A DNA stretch of 64,000 bases, from contig CAKMZV010000005.1 of NCBI GenBank assembly GCA_929200535.1, positions 12,442-76,441 on the forward strand, written 5' to 3'. This stretch comes from an uncultured Gammaproteobacteria bacterium (GTDB lineage: Bacteria > Pseudomonadota > Gammaproteobacteria > CAKMZV01). A model generated the notes under the pieces. That model worked only from the letters and a program-made list of their open reading frames with translations. It was not told where the DNA came from and did no database searches. Position numbers and translations under genes: made by a program. Position 1 is the first letter of the stretch. Every line of letters starts with the position of its first letter. Below are positions 3,492 through 44,704 of this stretch, piece after piece.

Positions 3492-4645
3492 TTCAATTTT
3501 TTTATTGCCTGCTCAATATCGCCAGGTAGTTGTGCTTCATCTTTTAATCTGCTTTGATGAAATTTATCATATTTTTCTTGTGCCAGTTGATCGGCTATTT
3601 GTTTTGTTACGTTTCCTGCATTGGTTAAAACTTCTTGGTTATTAAGTTGTAGAAATGCATCTAATTTTTCACGCCAATCTTTCATAAACATTTGTTTGTG
3701 ATTTTTAGCTTGGAGCTCGGCATAGTCTAAATACATTGTTACAATTCTGTTGAGCGTGTCTAATTCCTCTTTATATAGGCTACCTCTATTAAATATGACC
3801 CGTGTAAAAAAGCGAAAAATTCTCCCCAATTTCGTTGAAAAAAGTGGCAATAGAATGGCTATTACTCACTTTTTCCGCCTCATTGGGAATAATTTTTCAT
3901 CTTTTTTCCATCGTCCCATATTTAATAGAGATAGCCGATAATTTTTAGAAATAGTAACATCTTGTTTTCTTACTTTGTTTCCTTGCCAAGTCGTAAGCCC
4001 CATATTATCTTGCTTGACATCACTACGTTCTGCAATTACCTCGGCGGCGGTATGACCAGTCGCTGCAAAAATAAGTTTGTTTTGCACCACTTTAAAAAAT
4101 TCTTGTGTTTCTTCTGCCTTGGGTTCATAGTCTATGGATAGGGCATAAATATCCGTAATTTTGCGGTAAAAACGTTTTTCACTGGAACGTATATCTCGTA
4201 TCTCTTCTAATAGGTCATCAAAATAATCTTTACCAAAAGGGTTATCAGGATTTTTGAGTTTTTTATTATCAAGAACAAAACCTTTAATAATCAGTTCTTT
4301 TAGTTGCCGTGTTGCCCAAATTCTAAAGTGTGTTCCACGAATGGAATTGACTCGATAGCCTACTGAAATAATCATATCCAAATTGAAGAAATCCATTTGG
4401 TATGTTTTACCGTCTGTGGCAGTTGTTGCAAATTTTGCAACAACTGAATCTTTCTCTAACTCTTTGGTTTTATAGATGTTTTTGATGTGGCGACTGATGC
4501 CACTCTTATCAATGCCAAAAAGTTCTGCCATTTGATTGATGGTAAGCCAAATGGTTTCATCTTTGAGTAATACATCTACCTTTACCTCACCGTCTGGATT
4601 TCGGTAGAGTAAAAAATTGTTATGCTTGTTTGTTGCTTTATTCAC
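3488..4645 (-). pseudogene. rhuM: rhuM-family virulence/Fic-associated protein gene, split by a MITE insertion
   Basis: ORF 3866..4645 (259 aa) matches the RhuM N-terminal and central regions (...WLTINQMAELFGIDKSGISRHIKNIY...NLDMIISVGYRVNSIRGTHFRIWATRQLKELIIKGF...). ORF 3488..3850 carries the RhuM C-terminus (...DYAELQAKNHKQMFMKDWREKLDAFLQLNNQEVLTNAGNVTKQIADQLAQEKYDKF...). The break coincides with the 159-bp TIR element at 3778-3936. Confidence 0.7.
3778..3936. mobile_element. MITE-like element, family B copy 1 (20-bp TIR ggctacctctattaaatatg / catatttaatagagatagcc), inserted in rhuM
   Basis: Near-perfect terminal inverted repeats. A second copy with the same termini and subterminal module (atatgacccgtgtaaaaaagcga) lies at ~41656-41827. 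No ORF of transposase size. Confidence 0.65.
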
Positions 4646-6264: not shown

Positions 6265-7740
6265 TTAGTCAAAATTCGGTGGTGTTTGCAGGTGCCAGTC
6301 TGTGTTTTTTTGGTATTGATGGGCAATGTTTAAGATGTTATGCTCTTGTTTGTAGTTGCCAATGAGTTGCATTCCAAGCGGCCGTTTTTTCTCATCAAAA
6401 CCAATCGGTAATGCCATTGCAGGTAAGCCTGCGAGATTTACTGGAATGGTGAATATATCTTCCATATACACATTAACTGGGTCTTGATTATGAGAGTTAA
6501 GATTAAAGGCTGAGCCGGGCTTGGCTGGGAGGAGAATAGCTTCTACTTGTGAGAATGTGTTTTGAAATTGATTGGTGATGATTTGTCTGACTTTTTGAGC
6601 TTGTAGGTAGTAAGCATCAAAATAGCCTGCAGAGAGGACGTAAGTGCCTATCATTAATCGTCTTTTAACTTCTTCTCCAAATCCCTCAGAGCGAGAGCGT
6701 TTGTAAAGGTCCATCAAATCAACAGGGTCTTGACAGCGATAGCCATAGCGAACACCATCATAGCGTGAGAGGTTTGAGGAGGCTTCGGCAGAGGCAATAA
6801 TGTAGTAGGCAGCAATGGCACTTTGTAGGTTGTCAATTTCAATATTGACAATTTCGCAGCCGAGTTTTTTATATTCTTCTATGGCTTCGGTTAAGTGTTC
6901 TAAATTTGCCTTTCCTAGAATTTTTTGATCTTGCTCAAATAGGTGGTAGGGAACGCCGATTTTTTTTCCGCTGATTGAATCTTCAAGGTGTTGGCTGGTA
7001 GTGGTCTCGGGTTGTTGAATTGAGGTTGAGTCTTTTTCATCAAAGCCACTAATCACATCGAGTAAAAAAGCACAATCAGCAGCACTTTTTGCCATCGGTC
7101 CACCTTGATCTAAACTTGAGGCAAAGGCAATTTGCCCCCAACGGGATACAACGCCATAGGTTGGTTTTAAGCCAGTAATTCCACAGCAGGCAGCTGGTTG
7201 GCGAATTGATCCTCCGGTATCGGTTCCTACGGATAGAGGAGTTAATCTTGCGGCAACGGCAGCGGCAGAGCCACCTGAGGAACCACCAGGAATTGCATTT
7301 AAATCCCAAGGGTTGTGAGTGCTTCCAAAATAGCTCGTTTCAGTGGTTGAGCCCATAGCAAATTCATCCATATTGAGTTTGCCAAGAAGGGGCATATTTT
7401 GGGCAAAAACTTTGGCAGTAACCGTGGCGTTATAAGGGGCAATAAAATTTTCCAACATTCGACTGGCACAGGTGGTTTTTCCTCCATCTACGCAATAAAT
7501 ATCTTTGAGGGCAATAGGAATGCCTGTTAGCGGTGTGCAGTTGTTTTTTGCTCGTGCGGCATCGGCTTGCTTAGCTTGCTCTAAGGCTTGTTCTTCATTA
7601 AGGCTGATATAGGCTTTGGTTTTTTCATCAAGGCTTTTGCTACGCTCTAAAAAGTGCGTGGTGAGTTCAACGCTGCTTATTTTTTGTTGCGATAGTTGTT
7701 GGGAAAGTTCTTGAACACTGAGGTGGTGTAATTTACTCAT
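6265..7740 (-). CDS. gatA: Glu-tRNA(Gln) amidotransferase subunit A (amidase signature family)
   Basis: Amidase signature GGSSGGSAAAVAA. Full-length GatA similarity, adjacent to gatB and gatC. Confidence 0.95.
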   Translation of the reverse strand: MSKLHHLSVQELSQQLSQQKISSVELTTHFLERSKSLDEKTKAYISLNEEQALEQAKQADAARAKNNCTPLTGIPIALKDIYCVDGGKTTCASRMLENFIAPYNATVTAKVFAQNMPLLGKLNMDEFAMGSTTETSYFGSTHNPWDLNAIPGGSSGGSAAAVAARLTPLSVGTDTGGSIRQPAACCGITGLKPTYGVVSRWGQIAFASSLDQGGPMAKSAADCAFLLDVISGFDEKDSTSIQQPETTTSQHLEDSISGKKIGVPYHLFEQDQKILGKANLEHLTEAIEEYKKLGCEIVNIEIDNLQSAIAAYYIIASAEASSNLSRYDGVRYGYRCQDPVDLMDLYKRSRSEGFGEEVKRRLMIGTYVLSAGYFDAYYLQAQKVRQIITNQFQNTFSQVEAILLPAKPGSAFNLNSHNQDPVNVYMEDIFTIPVNLAGLPAMALPIGFDEKKRPLGMQLIGNYKQEHNILNIAHQYQKNTDWHLQTPPNFD

Positions 7741-7765
7741 ACAAAAAGGTTTTGTTGGTTATTCT

Positions 7766-7805
7766 GAGACTTTTTCACTTGTCATATTTTTTGTGCAAAG
7801 GTCTC
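7766..7805. repeat. minimal family-A element or solo terminus (gagactttttcac...acttgtcatattttttgtgcaaaggtctc) between gatC and gatA
   Basis: Contains the 28-bp family-A terminus (reverse complement of gagacctttgcacaaaagatatgacaagt) paired with a short degenerate gagac half-site. Confidence 0.5.
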
Positions 7806-8091
7806 ACTCTATAATGGTGGGCACAAGATATAATCCAGCTTCTGTTTGTGGGGCATTTTGTTGCATTTTTTCTCGCTGGTCTTTTTCTGTAACTACATCT
7901 TCACGTAATCTTTGGGTGATGGCTAAGGGGCTGGACATTGGCTCTACCTTAGATGTATCCACCTGATTAATTTGATCAATCAAGCTGATAACTTGATTAA
8001 ACTGTTCGGTAAATTTTGGGAGCTCTTGATCATTAAAATGAAGGCGTGCAAGATGAGCAACTTGTTTGATATTTTCGCTTTTTATGGACAT
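7804..8091 (-). CDS. gatC: Asp-tRNA(Asn)/Glu-tRNA(Gln) amidotransferase subunit C
   Basis: 95-aa protein, MSIKSENIKQVAHLARL..., typical GatC size and position upstream of gatA. Confidence 0.85.
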   Translation of the reverse strand: MSIKSENIKQVAHLARLHFNDQELPKFTEQFNQVISLIDQINQVDTSKVEPMSSPLAITQRLREDVVTEKDQREKMQQNAPQTEAGLYLVPTIIE

Positions 8092-9325: not shown

Positions 9326-9328
9326 TTT

Positions 9329-9625
9329 GAGACCTTTGTACAAAAGATATGACAAGTAAAAAAGTAAAAAATTGCCTTGATTTTTATTCGCAAGCGCTTC
9401 AAACGCTGTTACTCTATGGTTCGTAAACTCACCAAGAGTAAAAACGCTTTTTGTGTTGTGAAACTTGCGAAGACGGACGTATTAGCTTCATTTCACGCCT
9501 CAATCAGAATAATTTTTTATCTTTTTTCTTTTACCTGCAAGCAGTTCAAACACTGTTACTCTAAGGCTCGCAAGCTCGCCAAGAGTAAAAACGTTTTTTG
9601 TGCCATACTTTTATGTAAAGGTCTC
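9329..9625. mobile_element. MITE-like element, family A copy 1 (TIR gagacctttgtacaaaag...cttttatgtaaaggtctc), with an internal ~70-bp module duplicated
   Basis: Begins 4 bp after the mreB stop. ~95% identical over shared parts to the copy at 30036-30263. Internal module (caagcgNttcaaacRctgttactctaWggYtcgYaaRctcRccaagagtaaaaacgYtttttgtg) is present twice (9379-9450, 9536-9606). Confidence 0.7.
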
Positions 9626-9665
9626 AATTTGTTTCTTTGATGCAATTAGATATGAAGCCCATTAG

Positions 9666-15851: not shown

Positions 15852-16481
15852 ATGCCGGAAACTGGAAAATTTATTACTTTCGAGGGTATAGATGGCTCAG
15901 GTAAAAGCACGTTAATTACGGAAATTAAAGATTATCTTGAAAATCAAAAAATTAAGGTTTTTCAAAGTCGAGAGCCGGGTGGAGTGCCTATTGCGGAAGA
16001 AATTCGCAGTCTTTTATTAAGTGATGTGTTCATTGGTAGTGCAGGGGAAACGGAGGCATTGATGATGTTTGCTGCTCGCTTTGAGCATTTAAAAAATGCG
16101 ATTATTCCTGCTTTGGAAAAAGGGGAATGGGTATTATGCGATCGTTTTACAGACTCAACTTTTGCATATCAAGTGTTTGGGCGTGGGATAGATTTTTCTT
16201 GTGTAGAAAAATTATCCGATTTAGTGCATCCCAATCATCACCCTGATTTAACGATTTTGCTGGATCTCGATACCAACATTTCTTTAAAGAGAATAACACA
16301 AAAAGAAGAAAAGCTCAATCGTTTAGATGATAATACTGATTGCTTTCAGGATAGAGTGAAAGAGGGATATTTAAAGTTATCACAGAAATACCCAAAACGT
16401 ATCAAAGTAGTTGATGCAACTCAATCTTTTGATAATGTCTTGAAGCAAACTAAGGAATTATTAGATCCTTTACTGAGTTAA
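15852..16481 (+). CDS. tmk: thymidylate kinase
   Basis: ITFEGIDGSGKST P-loop, DRF motif (CDRFTDSTFAYQ). Start at the ATG at 15852, downstream of the longer tool ORF. Confidence 0.9.
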   Translation: MPETGKFITFEGIDGSGKSTLITEIKDYLENQKIKVFQSREPGGVPIAEEIRSLLLSDVFIGSAGETEALMMFAARFEHLKNAIIPALEKGEWVLCDRFTDSTFAYQVFGRGIDFSCVEKLSDLVHPNHHPDLTILLDLDTNISLKRITQKEEKLNRLDDNTDCFQDRVKEGYLKLSQKYPKRIKVVDATQSFDNVLKQTKELLDPLLS

Positions 16482-22815: not shown

Positions 22816-22825
22816 TTCTAATCTG

Positions 22826-22857
22826 CGACCTTTGCATCTCTTTTATGCAAAGGTCTC
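22826..22857. terminator. perfect palindromic hairpin (gacctttgcat-ctctttt-atgcaaaggtc) = minimal family-A element; likely bidirectional terminator between convergent genes
   Basis: 11-bp perfect stem with 7-nt loop, 11 nt after the hlyD stop. Sequence equals fused family-A termini. Confidence 0.5.
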
Positions 22858-23248
22858 AATCTATAACAATTTCCTCTTTATTAAACTTTTTCCTAACAAA
22901 GTTAAGGGCAGGGAGGAGATTGAATTTTTGAATAAAATATCTCTCAAACTTTTGCTTTTTAGGAAAATCTAACAGAATAATACCGATAAGAATGGTGAGG
23001 ATGCCTTGACCAGGGGTGAATAGAAAAACAATCCCAATCAATAAAAAGAACACCCCAAAAAAATTAGAAACAAAAAATAAAATGGGGTTTTTTCGCCTCT
23101 TTTCTTTGATGAAATAATCATACGGGATTTTGCAAATTAAAAACGGAGTAATCAACAGAGAAACCACAAATAGCGTGGCACTAATTATCGAAATATAGAG
23201 CAAAATAGTAGTGTAATCAAGACTTGAGATAAATTCTATAATATTCAT
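22856..23248 (-). CDS. small inner-membrane protein (PGPGW-like)
   Basis: 130 aa, 3-4 predicted TM helices, TPGQGILTILIGIILLDFP motif. No confident family. Confidence 0.45.
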   Translation of the reverse strand: MNIIEFISSLDYTTILLYISIISATLFVVSLLITPFLICKIPYDYFIKEKRRKNPILFFVSNFFGVFFLLIGIVFLFTPGQGILTILIGIILLDFPKKQKFERYFIQKFNLLPALNFVRKKFNKEEIVID

Positions 23249-23299: not shown

Positions 23300-24835
23300 C
23301 TAATTTATCGATAGGGTCGAGAGATTGAGGAAATTGCCATCGGTGGAGAGTTGGTAATTTTTGGCTCGAGAGCTAAGGACGACGAATTGGTTTTCGTACC
23401 ATAGTGAAACGTAGGGGAGGTCTTTTTGTAATTGATGTTGCAGTTGAAAGTAATATTTTTTCTTTTCGTCGATGCTTTGGGCTTGGTCACCTTTTTCAAT
23501 AAGTTTATCAGCTATTGGATTAATGTATTTTCCGCGGTTTGCTCCCTTAGGGGGAATCATCGAACTGTGGAACACATAACGATAAATATCAGGTTGTTTA
23601 ATACCAACCCATGAAAGTGAATAGAGTTGAAAACTGCCTTTTTTAATATCACCATAAAAAGTACCCCAATCATAACTTTGAATAGTAATATTGATATTGA
23701 TTTTTTTGAGTTGATGTTGGATAAGGGTAGCAACGCGCAAACGAAAGGCGGATTTTGACGTTTTATAAGAAAGCTCTAAAGGGTTGTTTTTATCATAGCC
23801 AAGCGTTTTAAGAAGTGCAATCGCTTGTTCAGGTTGGTAGGGGATATCGTTAAGGGTATCATCGGATGACCAATGTTCCCTTGGTAGCAAAGTTTGAGCA
23901 AGGCGGGCACGCTGGTTAAAAAGATATTGAATAATTTCTTGGCGGTTAATGCCGAGTGAAATGGCACGCCTAATTGTGCTGTTAGAGAGGATAGCATCTT
24001 GCAGGTTCATCCCGAGATAGGTGTAGCTACTTCCGAGTTTTTCCTTAACAATTAACTCCTTTTGTTGCGAGAGATATTTAATCAACTCTTGCGATAAGCC
24101 ATTTTGAATAATATCAATTTCTCCCTTAAGGATTTGCAGGGTTTTAACGGTATCGTCCCTACTTACAAGAAACTGAAAAATTTTATTATCCTTTTTTCGC
24201 TTGAGGTAAACATCGCCCTCGCCATCCCAATGGGCAAGTTGAAAACTACCACTGCCATTATGTTTTTTAATATTTTTGCCAGCGAGTTGAGTGCGTGGAA
24301 TAATACCAATCACCAGATTAGCAGGAAATAGAATATCCGGTTTTTTCAGGATAAAATCCACCGTTGTGGTATTGATTTTGACAATCTCCTTGATATTGAG
24401 CAGACTTCCGCGATGTGGCGAGCCCGTATTTTTATCCAACACCGATTGATAAGTGGCAATAAAATCCTCAATCTGCAAAGGTGTACCATCAGTAAAAGTA
24501 GGGCTACCTATCAGTCTAAAACGGTAATGAGAGTTACTAAGTTGTTGCCAATCGCTAAGCCACGCAATGGGATTACCCTCGCTATCAAACTTAACAGGAG
24601 CCTTATAAAGCAACTGAGCAATGCGAAAAGAAACCGCATCAGTCGCAAAACGAGGATCCAAAGTGCGCGGTGCGGATTTAATGGCAAACACAATATCGCT
24701 CTGTTTGGGTAAAGCAGTATCGGCAGTATTTGTGCCCTCAATAGAAGAGGAATTTGAGCAAGCGGTGAGGAATAATCCTGTTAGATATACAAGAAAGTTT
24801 TTTTTAAAGATTTCGCATTTAATAGAGGTAGCCAT
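23300..24835 (-). CDS. ABC-transporter substrate-binding lipoprotein, family 5 (OppA/DppA/NikA-like), orphan
   Basis: Lipobox LTACS, SBP_bac_5 architecture over the full length. No permease or ATPase genes adjacent. Confidence 0.8.
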   Translation of the reverse strand: MATSIKCEIFKKNFLVYLTGLFLTACSNSSSIEGTNTADTALPKQSDIVFAIKSAPRTLDPRFATDAVSFRIAQLLYKAPVKFDSEGNPIAWLSDWQQLSNSHYRFRLIGSPTFTDGTPLQIEDFIATYQSVLDKNTGSPHRGSLLNIKEIVKINTTTVDFILKKPDILFPANLVIGIIPRTQLAGKNIKKHNGSGSFQLAHWDGEGDVYLKRKKDNKIFQFLVSRDDTVKTLQILKGEIDIIQNGLSQELIKYLSQQKELIVKEKLGSSYTYLGMNLQDAILSNSTIRRAISLGINRQEIIQYLFNQRARLAQTLLPREHWSSDDTLNDIPYQPEQAIALLKTLGYDKNNPLELSYKTSKSAFRLRVATLIQHQLKKININITIQSYDWGTFYGDIKKGSFQLYSLSWVGIKQPDIYRYVFHSSMIPPKGANRGKYINPIADKLIEKGDQAQSIDEKKKYYFQLQHQLQKDLPYVSLWYENQFVVLSSRAKNYQLSTDGNFLNLSTLSIN

Positions 24836-29993: not shown

Positions 29994-30035
29994 ATTGGTT
30001 AAGGTTAATTTAGAAAATGAAAATTTATAAAAGTT

Positions 30036-30263
30036 GAGACCTTTGCACAAAAGATATGACAAGTAAAAAAGTAAAAAGTTGCCCTGATTTTTATCCGCAA
30101 GCGGTTCAAACGCTGTTACTCTATGGTTCGTAAACTCACCAAGAGTAAAAACGCTTTTTGTGTTGTGAAACTTGCAAAGACGGACGTATTAGCTTCATTT
30201 CACGCCTCAATCAGAACAATTTTTTATCTTTTTTCTTTTGCCATACTTTTATGCAAAGGTCTC
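30036..30263. mobile_element. MITE-like element, family A copy 2 (228 bp; TIR gagacctttgcacaaaag...cttttatgcaaaggtctc)
   Basis: Near-identical to 9329-9625 but with a single internal module. 18-bp perfect TIRs. No coding capacity beyond a ~25-codon ORF. Confidence 0.7.
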
Positions 30264-30372
30264 AAGTTATTTAATTAATTATACTTGCCCACGTAAGTAT
30301 TAGAGGTAGCTTTGTTTAAGAGAAGATTAATGCTTAATACACTACTATGCATAATATTTTCATCTCTTTAAT

Positions 30373-31963: not shown

Positions 31964-32428
31964 TTAAGAAGAGAATGATTGAGCTAATTGTTTGTCAATA
32001 GCTTGTTGCTCTACCCATCGATGAGTTCCGTCTTGATAGGTTTCTTTTTTCCAAAAGGGGGCAGCAACTTTGAGCGAATGAATGATAAATTCACAAGCTT
32101 GTAGAGCATTGATACGTTTGGGAGCACAGCAAATAACCAGTACAATGTTTTCCGCAGGTTTGAGTTCGCCAATGCGGTGAATGATTGAATAGGCACTGAG
32201 TTGCCATTTTTCACAGGCTTGATTGGCGATTTTTTGGAGCATTTTTTGGGTCATTGCGGGGTAGTGCTCTAAATATAGAGAGGAGATTTTGGATTGTTTT
32301 TTATCATCCCCATTGAAGTCACGAACTAAGCCGATAAATGAAGCAATTGCTCCTATATCAGTACGTTTTTGGGTGAGTTTGTGAATTTCCTCTTGAAGGT
32401 CAAAGTCAGAGTGTTGGACTTGAATCAT
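31964..32428 (-). CDS. moaE: molybdopterin synthase catalytic subunit
   Basis: Colinear with E. coli MoaE (...LEHYPAMT...IHRIGEL...APFWKKE...RWVE). Start at internal ATG (MIQVQHSDF). Confidence 0.8.
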   Translation of the reverse strand: MIQVQHSDFDLQEEIHKLTQKRTDIGAIASFIGLVRDFNGDDKKQSKISSLYLEHYPAMTQKMLQKIANQACEKWQLSAYSIIHRIGELKPAENIVLVICCAPKRINALQACEFIIHSLKVAAPFWKKETYQDGTHRWVEQQAIDKQLAQSFSS

Positions 32429-32436
32429 TGGTTGCT

Positions 32437-32682
32437 TTATCCTCCGGTGATTGGGGGAAAAAGGGCAATTTCGGCATTCTCTGGGATAGGGGATTCCCAA
32501 GTACTTAAATTCTGGTTAATTGCAATTTGTGTTTCTGGATTATTTAGTGCTTGTTGCCATTTTTCACCACGCTGGCAGAGGTGGGCTTTTAATTCATTTG
32601 CAGTGGCAAAAGATTGCTCAATTGGCTCTTCAGCAATGCCAAGTTGTTCTTTCAGTTTGGCAAAGTATAGAATGTTAATCAT
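32437..32682 (-). CDS. moaD: molybdopterin synthase sulfur-carrier subunit
   Basis: 81 aa ending in GG. MINILYFAKLKEQLG N-terminus typical of MoaD/ThiS fold. Sits between moaA and moaE. Confidence 0.7.
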   Translation of the reverse strand: MINILYFAKLKEQLGIAEEPIEQSFATANELKAHLCQRGEKWQQALNNPETQIAINQNLSTWESPIPENAEIALFPPITGG

Positions 32683-32710
32683 AATTTGGCAGAGATAGGC
32701 ACTATTATCG

Positions 32711-33709
32711 TTATCCGCCGAGTGATACCATTTGACGAAATTCAATATTTTTTCGATTTTCATTGAAAAAATGACGCTCTGGTTTTAGTTCCATCGATTT
32801 GACAATCATAGCCTCAAGTTCATTATCGCTGATGCCATCACGTATTGGTTGGCGTAAATCAATGGAATGTTCTTGCCCCAGACATAAGGCAAGCGTGCCT
32901 CTTGAGGTGAGACGTACGCGGTTGCAGGTGGCACAAAAATGTTGTGATACAGCGGAAATAACGCCGATACCGAGGTGTTTTTTTTCAGTACGGTAGTATT
33001 TTGCCGGTCCACCACCTTGGCGGCTAATGCTCGGAATTAGTTTTTCACCAAGGTGTTTTTCAACCCGCTCAAGCATTTCTTGCATTGGGATGTGTTTGTT
33101 CATTGAGTCAATCCCAGATTTTCCAATCGGCATTATTTCAATAAAGCGTAATTCAAGCCCGTATTTTGCGCTCCAATCAATGAGGTTTTCCATTTGGTCG
33201 TCATTAACTCCTCTCATCATTACGGTATTGATTTTGATTGGATCAAAGCCAATTTTTTTGGCTTGATAAATGCCTGTGAGAACTTTATTAAGGTTTCCAC
33301 CTCGGGTGATGCGATTAAATTCATCTGCGTTGAGCGTATCTAATGAAATATTCAGACGCCTAATGCCTGCTTGATAAAGGGGTTTTGCATAGCGTTCTAA
33401 GCGAGTGGCGTTAGTGGATAATGAGAGATCTAAATTGTCATTATCTTGGTTTATCATTGATACTATTTCGGTTAGATCTTTGCGTAAAAGAGGTTCGCCT
33501 CCAGTAAAGCGAATTCGCTTTACTCCAAGACGCACAAAAGCGGAGCAAATGCGAGAAATTTCTTCGGCAGTTAAATATTCAGTGTATTTGCCATTGGGGT
33601 GAACTCCTTTTGCTGGTGAGCAATAATCACAACGCAAATCACATTTATCCGTTACAGAAACGCGGATATAAGTAATTTCACGACCAAATGAATCAATTAG
33701 ACTTGTCAT
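32711..33709 (-). CDS. moaA: GTP 3',8-cyclase (radical SAM, molybdenum cofactor biosynthesis)
   Basis: CDLRCDYC radical-SAM cluster motif, C-terminal second cluster (CATCNRVRLTSRG), full-length MoaA similarity. Start codon lies inside a solo family-A repeat terminus. Confidence 0.9.
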   Translation of the reverse strand: MTSLIDSFGREITYIRVSVTDKCDLRCDYCSPAKGVHPNGKYTEYLTAEEISRICSAFVRLGVKRIRFTGGEPLLRKDLTEIVSMINQDNDNLDLSLSTNATRLERYAKPLYQAGIRRLNISLDTLNADEFNRITRGGNLNKVLTGIYQAKKIGFDPIKINTVMMRGVNDDQMENLIDWSAKYGLELRFIEIMPIGKSGIDSMNKHIPMQEMLERVEKHLGEKLIPSISRQGGGPAKYYRTEKKHLGIGVISAVSQHFCATCNRVRLTSRGTLALCLGQEHSIDLRQPIRDGISDNELEAMIVKSMELKPERHFFNENRKNIEFRQMVSLGG

Positions 33710-33730
33710 ATCTTTTGTGCAAAAGTCTCA
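33701..33730. repeat. solo family-A repeat terminus (acttgtcatatcttttgtgcaaaagtctca) overlapping the moaA start codon
   Basis: 28/30 match to the family-A terminus. The ATG ACA AGT of moaA is the atgacaagt of the repeat. Confidence 0.5.
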
Positions 33731-33889
33731 TTCTTTAATTTTATCGCTATGATTTAATTTATCAGCGTCTTTTTGACATTCTGTTAAATCAGCTTGGTAA
33801 GCATTCATATCAACTCCATCGGTATGAATAAAAGGAAGGGGGGCGATTACTACAGGCGGATAATACAAAAAGCAATAGAGTTATTATTT

Positions 33890-34252
33890 TTAATTTAATA
33901 CTTTATAGCCTCGGTTTTTTAAACATTTTTTAACAATACTGCTTTCTTCTTCATCATTCTTTAAGGCTCCTAAAGCTGTTCCTTCAGTAGCTCCGATGGC
34001 AGCGTGTGTGCCGACATTTTCTGGGTCAATTAAGGCACCAAGAGTACCTCGAAGTAATGCCCCAAAACCCGCACTTTTGGCAATGTTCTTACCGCTTTCT
34101 AACTGCTCTGCGACTTGTTCGCATTCAGCAAGATCAGTTTTATAAGCATCTATATCGATACCTTTAGTGTCGATAACTGGGCGACTGGCACAGGATGAAA
34201 GCAGTAGTGTTGACAGGGCAATTATCCAAAAAATGAAATTTTCTTTAACCAT
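33890..34252 (-). CDS. lipoprotein with glycine-zipper motif
   Basis: Lipobox LLSSC, then GFGALLRGTLGALIDP...GTHAAIGATEGTALGAL glycine-zipper-like segment. Overlaps the dsbA stop. Confidence 0.5.
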   Translation of the reverse strand: MVKENFIFWIIALSTLLLSSCASRPVIDTKGIDIDAYKTDLAECEQVAEQLESGKNIAKSAGFGALLRGTLGALIDPENVGTHAAIGATEGTALGALKNDEEESSIVKKCLKNRGYKVLN

Positions 34253-34871
34253 TTTTTAGTAAATAATTAATTATTTTGAAGATCTCATCTTTTCCCCCGG
34301 CGGTTTTTTCAGAAACACGATACTTCCCTTTAACAATAAAAGAGGGAACGCCTTCAATTTCAGATTTTTCAGTTAATTTTTTAGCTTGGGTCATTAAATT
34401 TTTAACCGCAAAACTATTGTAGGTTTTAGTAACGGTTTCTTTGTCAACTCCAACGCTTTTGAAAATATCGAAAATATCTTCTTGCGAGCGTAGTTGACCA
34501 GAGGAATAACGCTTAAAAATCTCCCCTTGAAGCTCATTGTGTTTTTTCAGTACGAATGCGACGTAGTAAAGTTGGACTGACCATTTGACACGTGGGGAGT
34601 AAAAAGCAGGTTGGTAGTGAAAATTAACTGTAGATTGTTTTGTTTTTAACCACTTTTCAACATATGGGTGAATATTTTTACAATGAGGACAACCATAGTA
34701 AAAAAACTCCACAACCTCAGGTTGCTTAGTCAGCGTGAACTCATTCTTCGGAGGGATTTTAAGATAATGTTTCCCTTCAATATACTTTTCTGCATTGCCT
34801 GACAAAGCAAGCAAAGAGAGAGTAGTTAACAAGAATGCTTTTGATAAAAGTGAAAGTGTTTTTGTTTTCAT
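34245..34871 (-). CDS. dsbA: thiol:disulfide interchange protein DsbA (copy 1)
   Basis: Signal peptide, CPHC active site (FFYYGCPHCKN), DsbA fold length (208 aa). Confidence 0.85.
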   Translation of the reverse strand: MKTKTLSLLSKAFLLTTLSLLALSGNAEKYIEGKHYLKIPPKNEFTLTKQPEVVEFFYYGCPHCKNIHPYVEKWLKTKQSTVNFHYQPAFYSPRVKWSVQLYYVAFVLKKHNELQGEIFKRYSSGQLRSQEDIFDIFKSVGVDKETVTKTYNSFAVKNLMTQAKKLTEKSEIEGVPSFIVKGKYRVSEKTAGGKDEIFKIINYLLKNG

Positions 34872-35027
34872 AATATTATTCTATAAGGTTGTTTTGAAAA
34901 AATTAAATAAAAGTGTAGCCTACAGTTCTCCATTATATCGATACCTTTGGTGTCGATAACTGGGCGACTGGCACAGGATGAAAGCAGTAGTGTTGACAGG
35001 GCAATTATCCAAAAAATGAAATTTTCT

Positions 35028-35654
35028 TTAACCATTTTTTAGTAAATAATTAATTATTTTGAAGATCTCATCTTTTCCCCCGGCGGTTTTTTCAGAAACA
35101 CGATACTTCCCTTTAACAATAAAAGAGGGAACGCCTTCAATTTCAGATTTTTCAGTTAATTTTTTAGCTTGGGTCATTAAATTTTTAACCGCAAAACTAT
35201 TGTAGGTTTTAGTAACGGTTTCTTTGTCAACTCCAACGCTTTTGAAAATATCGAAAATATCTTCTTGCGAGCGTAGTTGACCAGAGGAATAACGCTTAAA
35301 AATCTCCCCTTGAAGCTCATTGTGTTTTTTCAGTACGAATGCGACGTAGTAAAGTTGGACTGACCATTTGACACGTGGGGAGTAAAAAGCAGGTTGGTAG
35401 TGAAAATTAACTGTAGATTGTTTTGTTTTTAACCACTTTTCAACATATGGGTGAATATTTTTACAATGAGGACAACCATAGTAAAAAAACTCCACAACCT
35501 CAGGTTGCTTAGTCAGCGTGAACTCATTCTTCGGAGGGATTTTAAGATAATGTTTCCCTTCAATATACTTTTCTGCATTGCCTGACAAAGCAAGCAAAGA
35601 GAGAGTAGTTAACAAGAATGCTTTTGATAAAAGTGAAAGTGTTTTTGTTTTCAT
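35028..35654 (-). CDS. dsbA: thiol:disulfide interchange protein DsbA (copy 2, identical)
   Basis: 100% identical protein to copy 1, within the second 783-bp repeat unit. Confidence 0.85.
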   Translation of the reverse strand: MKTKTLSLLSKAFLLTTLSLLALSGNAEKYIEGKHYLKIPPKNEFTLTKQPEVVEFFYYGCPHCKNIHPYVEKWLKTKQSTVNFHYQPAFYSPRVKWSVQLYYVAFVLKKHNELQGEIFKRYSSGQLRSQEDIFDIFKSVGVDKETVTKTYNSFAVKNLMTQAKKLTEKSEIEGVPSFIVKGKYRVSEKTAGGKDEIFKIINYLLKNG

Positions 35655-35702
35655 AATATTATTCTATAAGGTTGTTTTGAAAAAATTAAATAAAAGTGTA
35701 GC

Positions 35703-36920
35703 CTACAGTTCTCCATAGGAATGAAGCCCAGATAAAAACATATTGACGCCAAGAAAGGCAAAGAGAGTAACGAATAGCCCAATAATAGCCCACCACGCCA
35801 TTAAGGTGCCTCGCCATCCTTTTGATATTCTTAGATGTAACCAAGCCGCATAGTTTAGCCACACAATCAATGCCCAAGTTTCTTTCGGATCCCAAGACCA
35901 ATACCCGCCCCAAGCCTCAGCCGCCCATAAGGCTCCGAGAATAGTGGCAATGGTAAAGGCAATAAAACCTAATGAAATTGCACGATAGGTTACCTCATCG
36001 ATAACCACTGTGGTGGGCATACGTTGTAACCAAAAAGATGGTTTTTCTTTTTGTTGGAAGTGATTGACGATTAACCATGCAATGGAGGTCATTGCGGCTA
36101 ATGCAAAAGCACCATAGCCGATAAAATTTGCTGGCACGTGAATTTTCATCCAATAGGAATTAAGGGCTGGAACTAAAGGCTGTATGTGGTGTGCGTTTCT
36201 TTCAAAGGCATACCACAGCAGGAAAGCAACCGCAAGCGAAACAATCAAGAGAGCAAAAAAGCCTAATTTGTAGTTTTGTAAGCGACGTTCTACTTGTAGA
36301 TAGATTAGCGTGGTAATCAAACAAAATAGAATAAAAACTTCATATAAATTACTGATTGGAATATGTCCGATTTGAGGGTCAATCAGGTAAGATTCGTGCC
36401 AACGAACTAATAATCCAGCAAAACCCATTACAACCCCTATCCATGCTAACTTACTGGATAATGCACCAATAAATTTATTGGTTGATAGAGTATGTGTTAA
36501 ATAGCCGATAGTTGAAAACACTAATAAAGCACTCATCCACATGACAGCAGATTGACTGGCAAAGAGATATTTAAGCCAAAAATTACTTTGTGCTAAATCA
36601 AGATTGTTTTGATATTGCCAAAGTGCAAAGAGGCTAATTACTCCAATAGCGATAAGGGCATATCTAAAAGCACGCCAATAAAAGCTGATGGAAAGCATCG
36701 TAATGACAGTAAAAATATAAATAACAACCTCAAAAACATCCATTGCTTGGCTATAGCGATAGCTAGCAAATAGAAAGAGAGTAGCCACCATCCATATTGA
36801 TGGAGAAAACAACGCTTCCCTAAGAAGGCGTTGGTCTATGGGTTCATTTATAGTTTGGTTTGCAGTAGTCACTTTATTATCATTAAAATAAGACGGCACA
36901 TTCATATTATAAGACGGCAC
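35703..36920 (-). CDS. ccsA: cytochrome c-type biogenesis protein CcsA/ResC (System II heme-handling protein)
   Basis: WWD/tryptophan-rich motif WAAEAWGGYWSWDPKETWALIVW, multiple TM helices. N-terminal ~100 aa poorly conserved, so the start is uncertain. Confidence 0.75.
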   Translation of the reverse strand: MPSYNMNVPSYFNDNKVTTANQTINEPIDQRLLREALFSPSIWMVATLFLFASYRYSQAMDVFEVVIYIFTVITMLSISFYWRAFRYALIAIGVISLFALWQYQNNLDLAQSNFWLKYLFASQSAVMWMSALLVFSTIGYLTHTLSTNKFIGALSSKLAWIGVVMGFAGLLVRWHESYLIDPQIGHIPISNLYEVFILFCLITTLIYLQVERRLQNYKLGFFALLIVSLAVAFLLWYAFERNAHHIQPLVPALNSYWMKIHVPANFIGYGAFALAAMTSIAWLIVNHFQQKEKPSFWLQRMPTTVVIDEVTYRAISLGFIAFTIATILGALWAAEAWGGYWSWDPKETWALIVWLNYAAWLHLRISKGWRGTLMAWWAIIGLFVTLFAFLGVNMFLSGLHSYGEL

Positions 36921-41655: not shown

Positions 41656-41827
41656 GAGACCATCTCTATTAAATATGACCCGTGTAAAAAAGCGAGAAAT
41701 TCTTCCTAATTTTATCAGCAAGCTATTTAAACAATCATAAATTTGCCAAGAATAAAAACACTTTTTGTTGTCTCACTGGAGGGATTTTTTAATTTTTTTC
41801 TATTATCTCATATTTAATAGAGGTAGC
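41656..41827. mobile_element. MITE-like element, family B copy 2
   Basis: Same termini (ctctattaaatatg...catatttaatagaggtagc) and subterminal module as 3778-3936. Left end begins gagacc as in family A. Internal segment ccaagaataaaaacactttttgttgt resembles the family-A internal module. Confidence 0.6.
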
Positions 41828-41967
41828 TTATAATATCTTAGAAGGCTACGAAGATTACTTATAAAGTACGACATTTAAAAATTGACAAATACACCCTTAC
41901 CCTCAAAACCTCCAAGAAAGAAATTTCATCACAAAATGGTTCATGATTTGAGCTATAAAGTATCGCT

Positions 41968-44422: not shown

Positions 44423-44704
44423 AAGAGTCTGTAATTATGTGTGGTTGGTTATCGCTATTCACTGTGAGCCGTGAAAGAAGGCGAAAATCTATCCCCAATT
44501 TTATTAATAAGCATTTCAAACGCTGTTACTTTAAAAATCGAAAAAAATTAGGCTGCCCTAAAGCAATTTCTTATTATATTCGTACAAATAAAAGTTTACG
44601 TAATTTAGTTATCAGGTTGGTGAAAAATCATAACAAGAATTTTAGGAGTATTGAACGCGTTCTATTAGACTTGTTTTTTAAAGAACAACACTCAGGAGAA
44701 AAAT

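Follow-up and report, generated by a model that had tools for sequence, protein, structure and literature searches.

The start codon of moaA in the genome of an uncultured gammaproteobacterium lies within the end of a dispersed repeat, which raises the question of whether a mobile element supplied the translation start of a molybdenum cofactor gene and, if so, how much of the gene was changed by it. The locus was analyzed in a DNA stretch of 64,000 nt (hereafter the window), and coordinates refer to the window unless another contig is named.

The moaA start codon and the repeat remnant

The open reading frame at 32711..33709 on the minus strand encodes a protein of 332 amino acids and opens at the ATG 33709-33707. 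It was identified as an intact moaA, the gene for GTP 3',8-cyclase, through a full-length match to the NCBIfam equivalog TIGR02666 (374.4 bits against a cutoff of 284 bits; aligned residues 4-332) and through the radical-SAM CxxxCxxC motif (CDLRCDYC) and the C-terminal Cys cluster (CATCNRVRLT), both of which are present. The alignment with the solved structure of Staphylococcus aureus MoaA (PDB 1TV7; E = 3.5e-61) likewise starts from residue 4. The closest named homologues belong to Thiomicrorhabdus and Hydrogenovibrio (55-58% identity), and the protein is alone in its 90%-identity cluster. The same genome encodes a molybdopterin oxidoreductase at another place, so that the molybdenum cofactor pathway is in use.

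On the minus strand, the 5' end of the gene reads TGAGACTTTTGCACAAAAGAT ATG ACA AGT, followed by CTA ATT GAT TCA. An in-frame TGA (33728..33730, minus strand), which is the tip of the repeat, begins 21 nt 5' of the moaA ATG, leaves 18 nt between the two, and terminates an upstream pseudo-ORF (translation ...DKIKE*DFCTKDMTS). No start codon occurs between this TGA and the ATG, and no in-frame ATG, GTG, or TTG follows the ATG up to the conserved LIDxFxR and CxxxCxxC region. The ATG at 33709-33707 (minus strand) is therefore predicted to be the sole usable start of moaA, and the starts of its relatives align with it.

The 30-mer ACTTGTCATATCTTTTGTGCAAAAGTCTCA, which the first-pass annotation had described as the terminus of a repeat family (family A), is located exactly at 33701-33730. 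Allowing up to three mismatches, the window contains copies at 7777-7806, 9328-9357, 30035-30064, and 33701-33730, with 0-2 mismatches each, as against no copy in 100 dinucleotide-preserving shuffles, and the copy at the moaA start matches the other three at 28-29 of 30 positions. It represents element positions 1-30 of the family-A left end on the minus strand and holds the tip TGAGAC, a 21-nt leader, and ATG ACA AGT. The annotated identity of this last motif with codons 1-3 of moaA was confirmed by the minus-strand reading and the 332-residue frame. The homology with family A breaks off exactly after position 30 (AGT), where the other copies go on with AAAAAAG, and the intact left tip adjoins ...AAA ATT AAA GAA. 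Neither a right tip nor a target duplication was found at this copy (flanks GAA vs CTA), which is a decayed one-ended remnant of family A and not an intact member.

Six independent metagenome assemblies of this species, produced by two pipelines and 99.6-100% identical to the window, agree in every base over 261 nt around the moaA start, indicating that the upstream region is no assembly artefact. Among these conspecific samples, all six are alike, with neither an empty site nor a full element at moaA.

Family A, a putative MITE, and its copies at other gene boundaries

The basic unit of family A is 161 bp long, ends in TG...CA (TGAGACCTTTGCA ... TGCAAAGGTCTCA, with tips conserved in every two-ended copy), and is flanked by a 3-bp target duplication. 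Over 14 two-ended copies, 33 of 42 duplication positions match (P = 4e-12), 12 of these copies matching at two or three of the three positions. The inverted repeats are imperfect and extend over about 50 nt (arms of 53 nt, 74% complementary). The copies, 161-299 bp in length, carry no transposase, and their sole ORF has about 46 codons. A census by tip search, run on the window plus about 100 kb from other contigs of the same genome (about 164 kb in total), recovered 10 two-ended elements, four mini or hairpin forms of 23-42 bp, and about five one-ended remnants, giving approximately 19 copies and remnants, or about one per 9 kb. Among 13 left ends, fusion to a gene occurs only once. With terminal inverted repeats, target duplications, small size, and dispersed copies as in miniature inverted-repeat transposable elements (MITEs), family A is classified on its sequence features as a putative MITE-type non-autonomous transposable repeat. 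A 5-bp duplication (ANNNT) outside GAGAC...GTCTC fitted the copies equally well and was dropped in favor of the simpler TG...CA ends with 3 bp.

The searches for a parent element returned little. A Pfam scan of ten window ORFs near repeat copies revealed no transposase, and no autonomous parent insertion sequence with matching inverted repeats and a DDE transposase was present in the window or the roughly 100 kb of extra contigs. The 47-residue read-through ORF, used as a query for a parent transposase, matched only ten other repeat copies, annotated as hypothetical proteins. Insertion sequences of the IS3 family have TG...CA termini, 3-bp (3-4-bp) duplications, and a reading frame soon after the left inverted repeat; family A resembles them in the termini, the 3-bp duplication, and the position of the frame, and its ORF matched nothing beyond the repeat itself. 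Strict and relaxed terminus patterns gave no or only chance-level matches in the species-representative genome collection, and family A had no match in Rfam or in the plasmid collection. A terminus scan of metagenomes yielded two matches, one of them by chance and the other of 29 nt. The latter lies on an unrelated metagenome contig (L091, 1480-1508), matches the family-A left end at 28 of 29 positions across the stop codon of a protein gene, and may reflect either distant relationship to the repeat or chance.

An ATG-initiated ORF reads through the 161-bp unit (MTSKKAKNR...FMQRS), and both long elements of the window carry MTSKKVKN/S... ORFs from the same ATG, as first annotated. Among six copies, 17 of the 20 variable sites are first or second codon positions, and codon differences comprise 18 synonymous versus 109 non-synonymous changes. 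The idea that this ORF is a real gene with a proven start was rejected because its variation lies mostly at codon positions 1-2; lacking coding constraint, the ORF appears incidental and gives no evidence for a working start site.

The two long elements are a two-ended copy of 299 bp between mreB and mreC (9328..9626, plus strand) and a two-ended copy of 230 bp (30035..30264, plus strand) with the duplication AGT/AGT. Copies of 230-299 bp consist of the 161-bp unit and one or two nested modules of about 70 bp, the 299-bp copy containing two and the 230-bp copy one. The module (TTTTATYCGCAAGCGSTTCAAACGCTGTTACTCT...AGAGTAAAAACG) was observed at 9382-9455, 9529-9602, 30089-30162, and 44499-44544. 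It is nested at two different positions in family-A copies, occurs in a second family as well, has no match in Rfam, and looks like a separate small insertion unit. This second MITE family (B), with the ends GGCTACCTCTATTAAATATGA, is represented at 3774-3942, 41657-41834, 44446-44544, and 24798-24833; its internal layout follows that of family A (ATATGAC..GT.AAAAAAG...), the nested module is common to both, and one copy adjoins RhuM-family genes. A further family-A form is a 35-bp hairpin running from tip to tip at 22824..22858 (no strand assigned), 3' of an HlyD-family gene, with the duplication ATC/ATC and a predicted fold of -17.1 kcal/mol (z = -7.5). Outside the window, remnants of the right-end type were seen at L101 7464-~7510, L103 653-665, L106 2914-2926, and L109 999-1011; one-ended remnants at other loci show that terminal decay is common in family A.

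Copies of family A also sit at the boundaries of other genes. Between gatC and gatA, the first-pass annotation had placed the same terminus at 7766-7805 as a solo end. The terminus is present there; the element, on the minus strand, spans 7765..7806 and is not solo, being a two-ended mini element of 42 bp with the right tip GTCTCA and the duplication GAG/GAA, and over its left 38 nt it shows 95% identity with the full element. The gatC frame now terminates at the TGA of the element tip (7804-7806), with GAA TAA, the native ending, retained directly behind the element. In a relative (L095), the corresponding site reads GAG TAA followed by 13 nt, without an element. In the lptE-position gene (149 codons) on contig L106, the tip TGA (16234-16236) is again the stop codon, in the context ...ATA GAA TGA GAC...GTCTCA GAA TAA, so that a mini element of 40-42 bp follows the last sense codon in both genes. 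The repeat family found at moaA has thus taken over the stop codons of two further conserved genes. On contig L111 (9980-9995), a family-A copy with the mutated tip TGATAC is entered by an IclR-type gene, which stops five codons further on and so has a repeat-derived C-terminus. The copies at gene boundaries fit tolerated insertion. Of the five short family-A copies, three have GAA or GAG next to the tip (33731, 7807, and L106 16237), the duplications of full-length copies being varied; this pattern could reflect chance, a preference for GAA-TAA gene ends, or survival.

Probable replacement of the moaA initiation region

The two nearest MoaA relatives, found in Logan assemblies (L081 and L082), are 71% and 73% identical to the protein. 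They share with the window the gene order ccsA, dsbA, lipoprotein gene, moaA, moaD, and moaE, and their moaA loci contain no family-A sequence, their upstream DNA being unrelated to the repeat. The gap between the single lipoprotein gene and moaA is 7 and 39 nt in these relatives, as against 180 nt in the window. Their moaA genes begin with ATG CCT AAA TTA ATT GAT and ATG ACC AAA CTG ATT GAC, respectively, so that MPK-LID and MTK-LID in the relatives correspond to MTS-LID here and the start position is conserved. More widely, LID is preceded by M and one to three further residues in the closest homologues, and a lead of two to four residues is the commonest pattern among the 120 homologues listed. 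A repeat-free homologue of 55% identity (P0083) even has a native MTSLID, encoded by ATG ACT AGC CTA ATC GAC, and its start sits behind an ordinary AGGAAGG site.

These comparisons divide the earlier proposal that element insertion or decay reshaped the 5' end and the initiation region of moaA. As to the initiation region, the remnant contains the start codon together with the preceding 21 nt and the relatives' upstream DNA is wholly different, which suggests that this region was replaced through insertion and decay of an element. As to the 5' end of the coding sequence, the relatives start at the same position, homology runs from residue 4, and a change reaches residue 3 at most, which suggests that the leader was replaced by the repeat while the start stayed in place. 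On the alignments, the repeat appears to have replaced the leader and at most residue 3 (K to S), possibly no residue at all, and the protein appears to keep its ancestral length. The annotation had also allowed that the likeness would be coincidental if repeat-free relatives shared the first codons and the upstream sequence, and had suggested aligning N-termini in search of relatives without the repeat-derived MTS. Relatives without the repeat were found, and because their upstream DNA is unrelated, the condition for coincidence does not hold; their start position is the same and the MTS of P0083 is native.

The DNA directly upstream differs as well. Immediately 5' of the repeat tip lies a decayed paralogue of a lipoprotein gene (33731..33889, minus strand; 159 nt), which is 41% identical to the intact lipoprotein, keeps the lipobox LLFVLSAC, and carries a frameshift in a C-run. 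It aligns to approximately the first 65 of 126 alignment columns and is cut mid-length exactly at the repeat tip, its 3' half missing; the paralogue is absent from L081 and L082. Behind it lies an intact gene for a glycine-zipper-type lipoprotein (33890..34252, minus strand), which is 66-71% identical to its L081 and L082 counterparts, has the same place in the gene order, and is the orthologue of the gene directly 5' of moaA in those relatives. Farther upstream, dsbA and the 5' part of the lipoprotein gene are included in a perfect 783-bp tandem duplication (34151-34933 and 34934-35716). It is found in the window's own sample only and is single-copy in five other samples of the same species, and the duplication is therefore very recent and polymorphic. 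On the other side of moaA, one sample (L086, about 6947-7765, corresponding to moaD-moaE at about 31964-32763 of the window) has about 19 extra bases relative to the window, and its gene call is a single moaD-moaE ORF of 272 amino acids, which may be a strain-level fusion or a frameshift.

The repeat-derived leader, UGAGACUUUUGCACAAAAGAU-AUG, is A-rich. Its fold is no better than that of shuffled sequences (z = -0.3 to -0.4), so that no RNA structure or terminator was detected at the leader, and its duplex with the anti-Shine-Dalgarno sequence is weak (-2.7 kcal/mol). A weak duplex is the rule here: with a canonical 16S 3' end assumed, pairing with CACCUCCUUA is weaker than -4 kcal/mol upstream of 30 of the 36 genes of the window. 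The GC content of the genome is 36.6%. Such a near-absence of Shine-Dalgarno sites is unusual for a gammaproteobacterium. The moaA genes of L081 and L082 both lack a Shine-Dalgarno site too. Since most of the genome does without such sites, an unstructured A-rich leader derived from a repeat should suffice, and initiation presumably relies on an open A/U-rich leader. No promoter or terminator signal above chance was detected in the 180-nt gap, which makes co-transcription of moaA with the upstream genes likely.

Taken together, the sequence at 33701-33730 is quite probably the decayed left end of a MITE, and insertion followed by deletion would have put the moaA start inside the repeat. A family-A copy, either full or in a 40-bp mini form, may have inserted at a codon GAA of the decaying lipoprotein paralogue. 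A later deletion would then have taken out what remained of the element along with the DNA as far as moaA and up to nine 5' bases of that gene, joining element position 30 in frame to moaA codon 4. The joint was probably guided by the likeness of the element's ATGACAAGT to the ATGACnA(A/G)n of moaA, with 6-9 bases in common, and slipped or illegitimate recombination in register is plausible. Against a joint guided in this way, there would be no microhomology at the exact junction if the native codon 3 was AAA, as it is in the two nearest relatives. Selection on moaA function would have kept only in-frame products of the right length, the change as such presumably being neutral or tolerated.

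Two starting points may be considered. Mini forms sit likewise at gatC/gatA and at lptE/holA, so a mini form at a GAA/TAA gene end may have been the substrate, in which case a deletion of only about 35-65 nt between short direct repeats would be needed. With a full element inside the paralogue, a single deletion of at least about 400 nt would explain both the missing half of the paralogue and the fusion. The joint could be placed either behind AGT or within the bases common to element and gene; had the deletion passed through the common ATGACnA, the ATG could be the element's or the gene's own. Under either course, moaA would be translated from an ATG embedded in the repeat at the ancestral position, behind a repeat-derived leader of 21 nt. 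The sites at moaA and gatC/gatA are filled in all six conspecific samples, the relatives without an element at gatC/gatA (L095) and at moaA (L081 and L082) have only 64-73% protein identity, and with 73% in the closest relative for comparison with the pre-insertion state, the deletion is a reconstruction rather than an observation.

The gene-boundary copies invite readings in which the repeat does more than lie where it landed. It is possible, though unlikely, that family-A ends are self-punctuating: with a preference for AT-rich targets that often include stop codons, the element could settle at the boundaries of tight operons without Shine-Dalgarno sites and take over the stop of the upstream gene and now and then the start of the downstream one, and the moaA start would be a functionally maintained takeover instead of tolerated debris. 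That the ends are selected as portable punctuation, with the tip TGA as a stop and an A-rich leader with an ATG 21 nt inside, and have been co-opted to stop upstream genes and to start moaA, for example by termination-reinitiation coupling, is quite improbable. Both gatC and the lptE-position gene use the tip TGA as their working stop, each with its native GAA TAA left behind, the IclR-type gene ends inside another copy, and in several operons copies lie 0-8 nt from upstream stop codons. At moaA itself the tip TGA precedes the ATG by 18 nt in the same frame, in a genome poor in Shine-Dalgarno sites. However, intergenic gaps of 7-40 nt and AT-rich targets would make insertions next to stop codons expected anyway, and selection for such a role agrees poorly with the single gene-fused left end among 13, with an element ORF free of coding constraint, and with relatives that manage without the element.

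It is very unlikely that the moaA copy is a complete mini-hairpin of 34 bp (TGAGACTTTTGCACAAAAGATATGACAAGTCTAA) with a degenerate right tip, which would make Leu4 element-derived too. The junction sequence AAGTCTAA does resemble the right tip of the gatC mini element, AAGTCTCA, at 7 of 8 positions, family A does include mini forms of 23-42 bp, and a T variant at position 7 would give a perfect 6-bp stem (AGACTT/AAGTCT). However, the fold of the 34-bp sequence is no better than shuffled, and the flanks show no target duplication (GAA vs TTG), whereas 12 of the 14 two-ended copies do at two or three positions. The codon CTA encodes the invariant Leu of the LID motif, present in every homologue listed, which makes a native origin of Leu4 simpler. 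Plain insertion would also leave the loss of the native first codons unexplained, and a native ...CTAATTGAT contiguous with the native start codon would be incompatible with such a hairpin. Scarcely credible is a chance likeness of the native 5' region of moaA to the repeat, or an assembler join through it, for although MTS-LID is native in P0083 and ATGAC is common to moaA and its nearest relative, the 30-nt match has no counterpart in the shuffles, the 21 nt 5' of the ATG match the repeat only, six assemblies from two pipelines agree, and a repeat of 30 nt does not reach the length of the k-mers usual in assembly.

Comparison with known repeat-gene fusions

Fusion of MITEs to neighboring genes has been reported in bacteria for the pneumococcal BOX, RUP, and SPRITE elements, the Bordetella BRE, and MITEs of enterobacteria and Anabaena (Delihas, 2011; PMC3184786). 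The MITEs described in that review and family A are alike in being small, non-autonomous repeats with terminal inverted repeats and target duplications that are abundant, intergenic, and able to alter the ends of ORFs (PMC3184786). In contrast to the fusions described there, the insertion-and-deletion history favored here left the moaA remnant on the ancestral start, with the protein length unchanged and without extension of the ORF. Repeat-gene fusion is thus already documented, and the moaA case is a further example, of the MITE kind, with no new mechanism.

A closer parallel in outcome may be the Neisseria REP2 and Borrelia repeats, which, like the moaA remnant, provide a chromosomal gene with both its 5' leader and its ATG (PMC3184786). 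As described in the review, REP2 lacks terminal inverted repeats, is equipped with a promoter and a ribosome-binding site, and lies upstream of many co-regulated genes (PMC3184786). Family A, in contrast, has terminal inverted repeats, no Shine-Dalgarno site, and no promoter above chance, and with only one of 13 left ends fused to a gene it is not REP2-like. Mycobacterial MIRUs are tandem arrays of variable copy number, whereas the family-A copies are single dispersed insertions with 3-bp duplications. According to the review, MIRUs, like family A, are sited between operon genes, with ends that overlap the adjacent genes (PMC3184786); the counterpart in family A is the tip TGA used as a stop by gatC and the lptE-position gene. 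The Rickettsia palindromic elements are likewise mobile palindromic repeats tolerated in or at protein genes, to which they add codons (Ogata et al., 2000, cited in PMC3184786); as reviewed, however, their in-frame insertions lie within genes and lengthen the protein by tens of residues, as against one residue at most here.

The locus resolves to single bases how the debris of a mobile repeat can replace the whole initiation region of a housekeeping gene while leaving the protein unaltered. Where a genome has few Shine-Dalgarno sites, nearly any A-rich sequence ending in an ATG may serve as a leader; such takeovers would then be cheap, which may help explain why the repeat, at about one copy per 9 kb, is tolerated inside operons. 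For annotation, the starts and stops called in repeat-rich, symbiont-like genomes can be repeat-derived, and the short ORFs of the repeat itself end up called hypothetical proteins.
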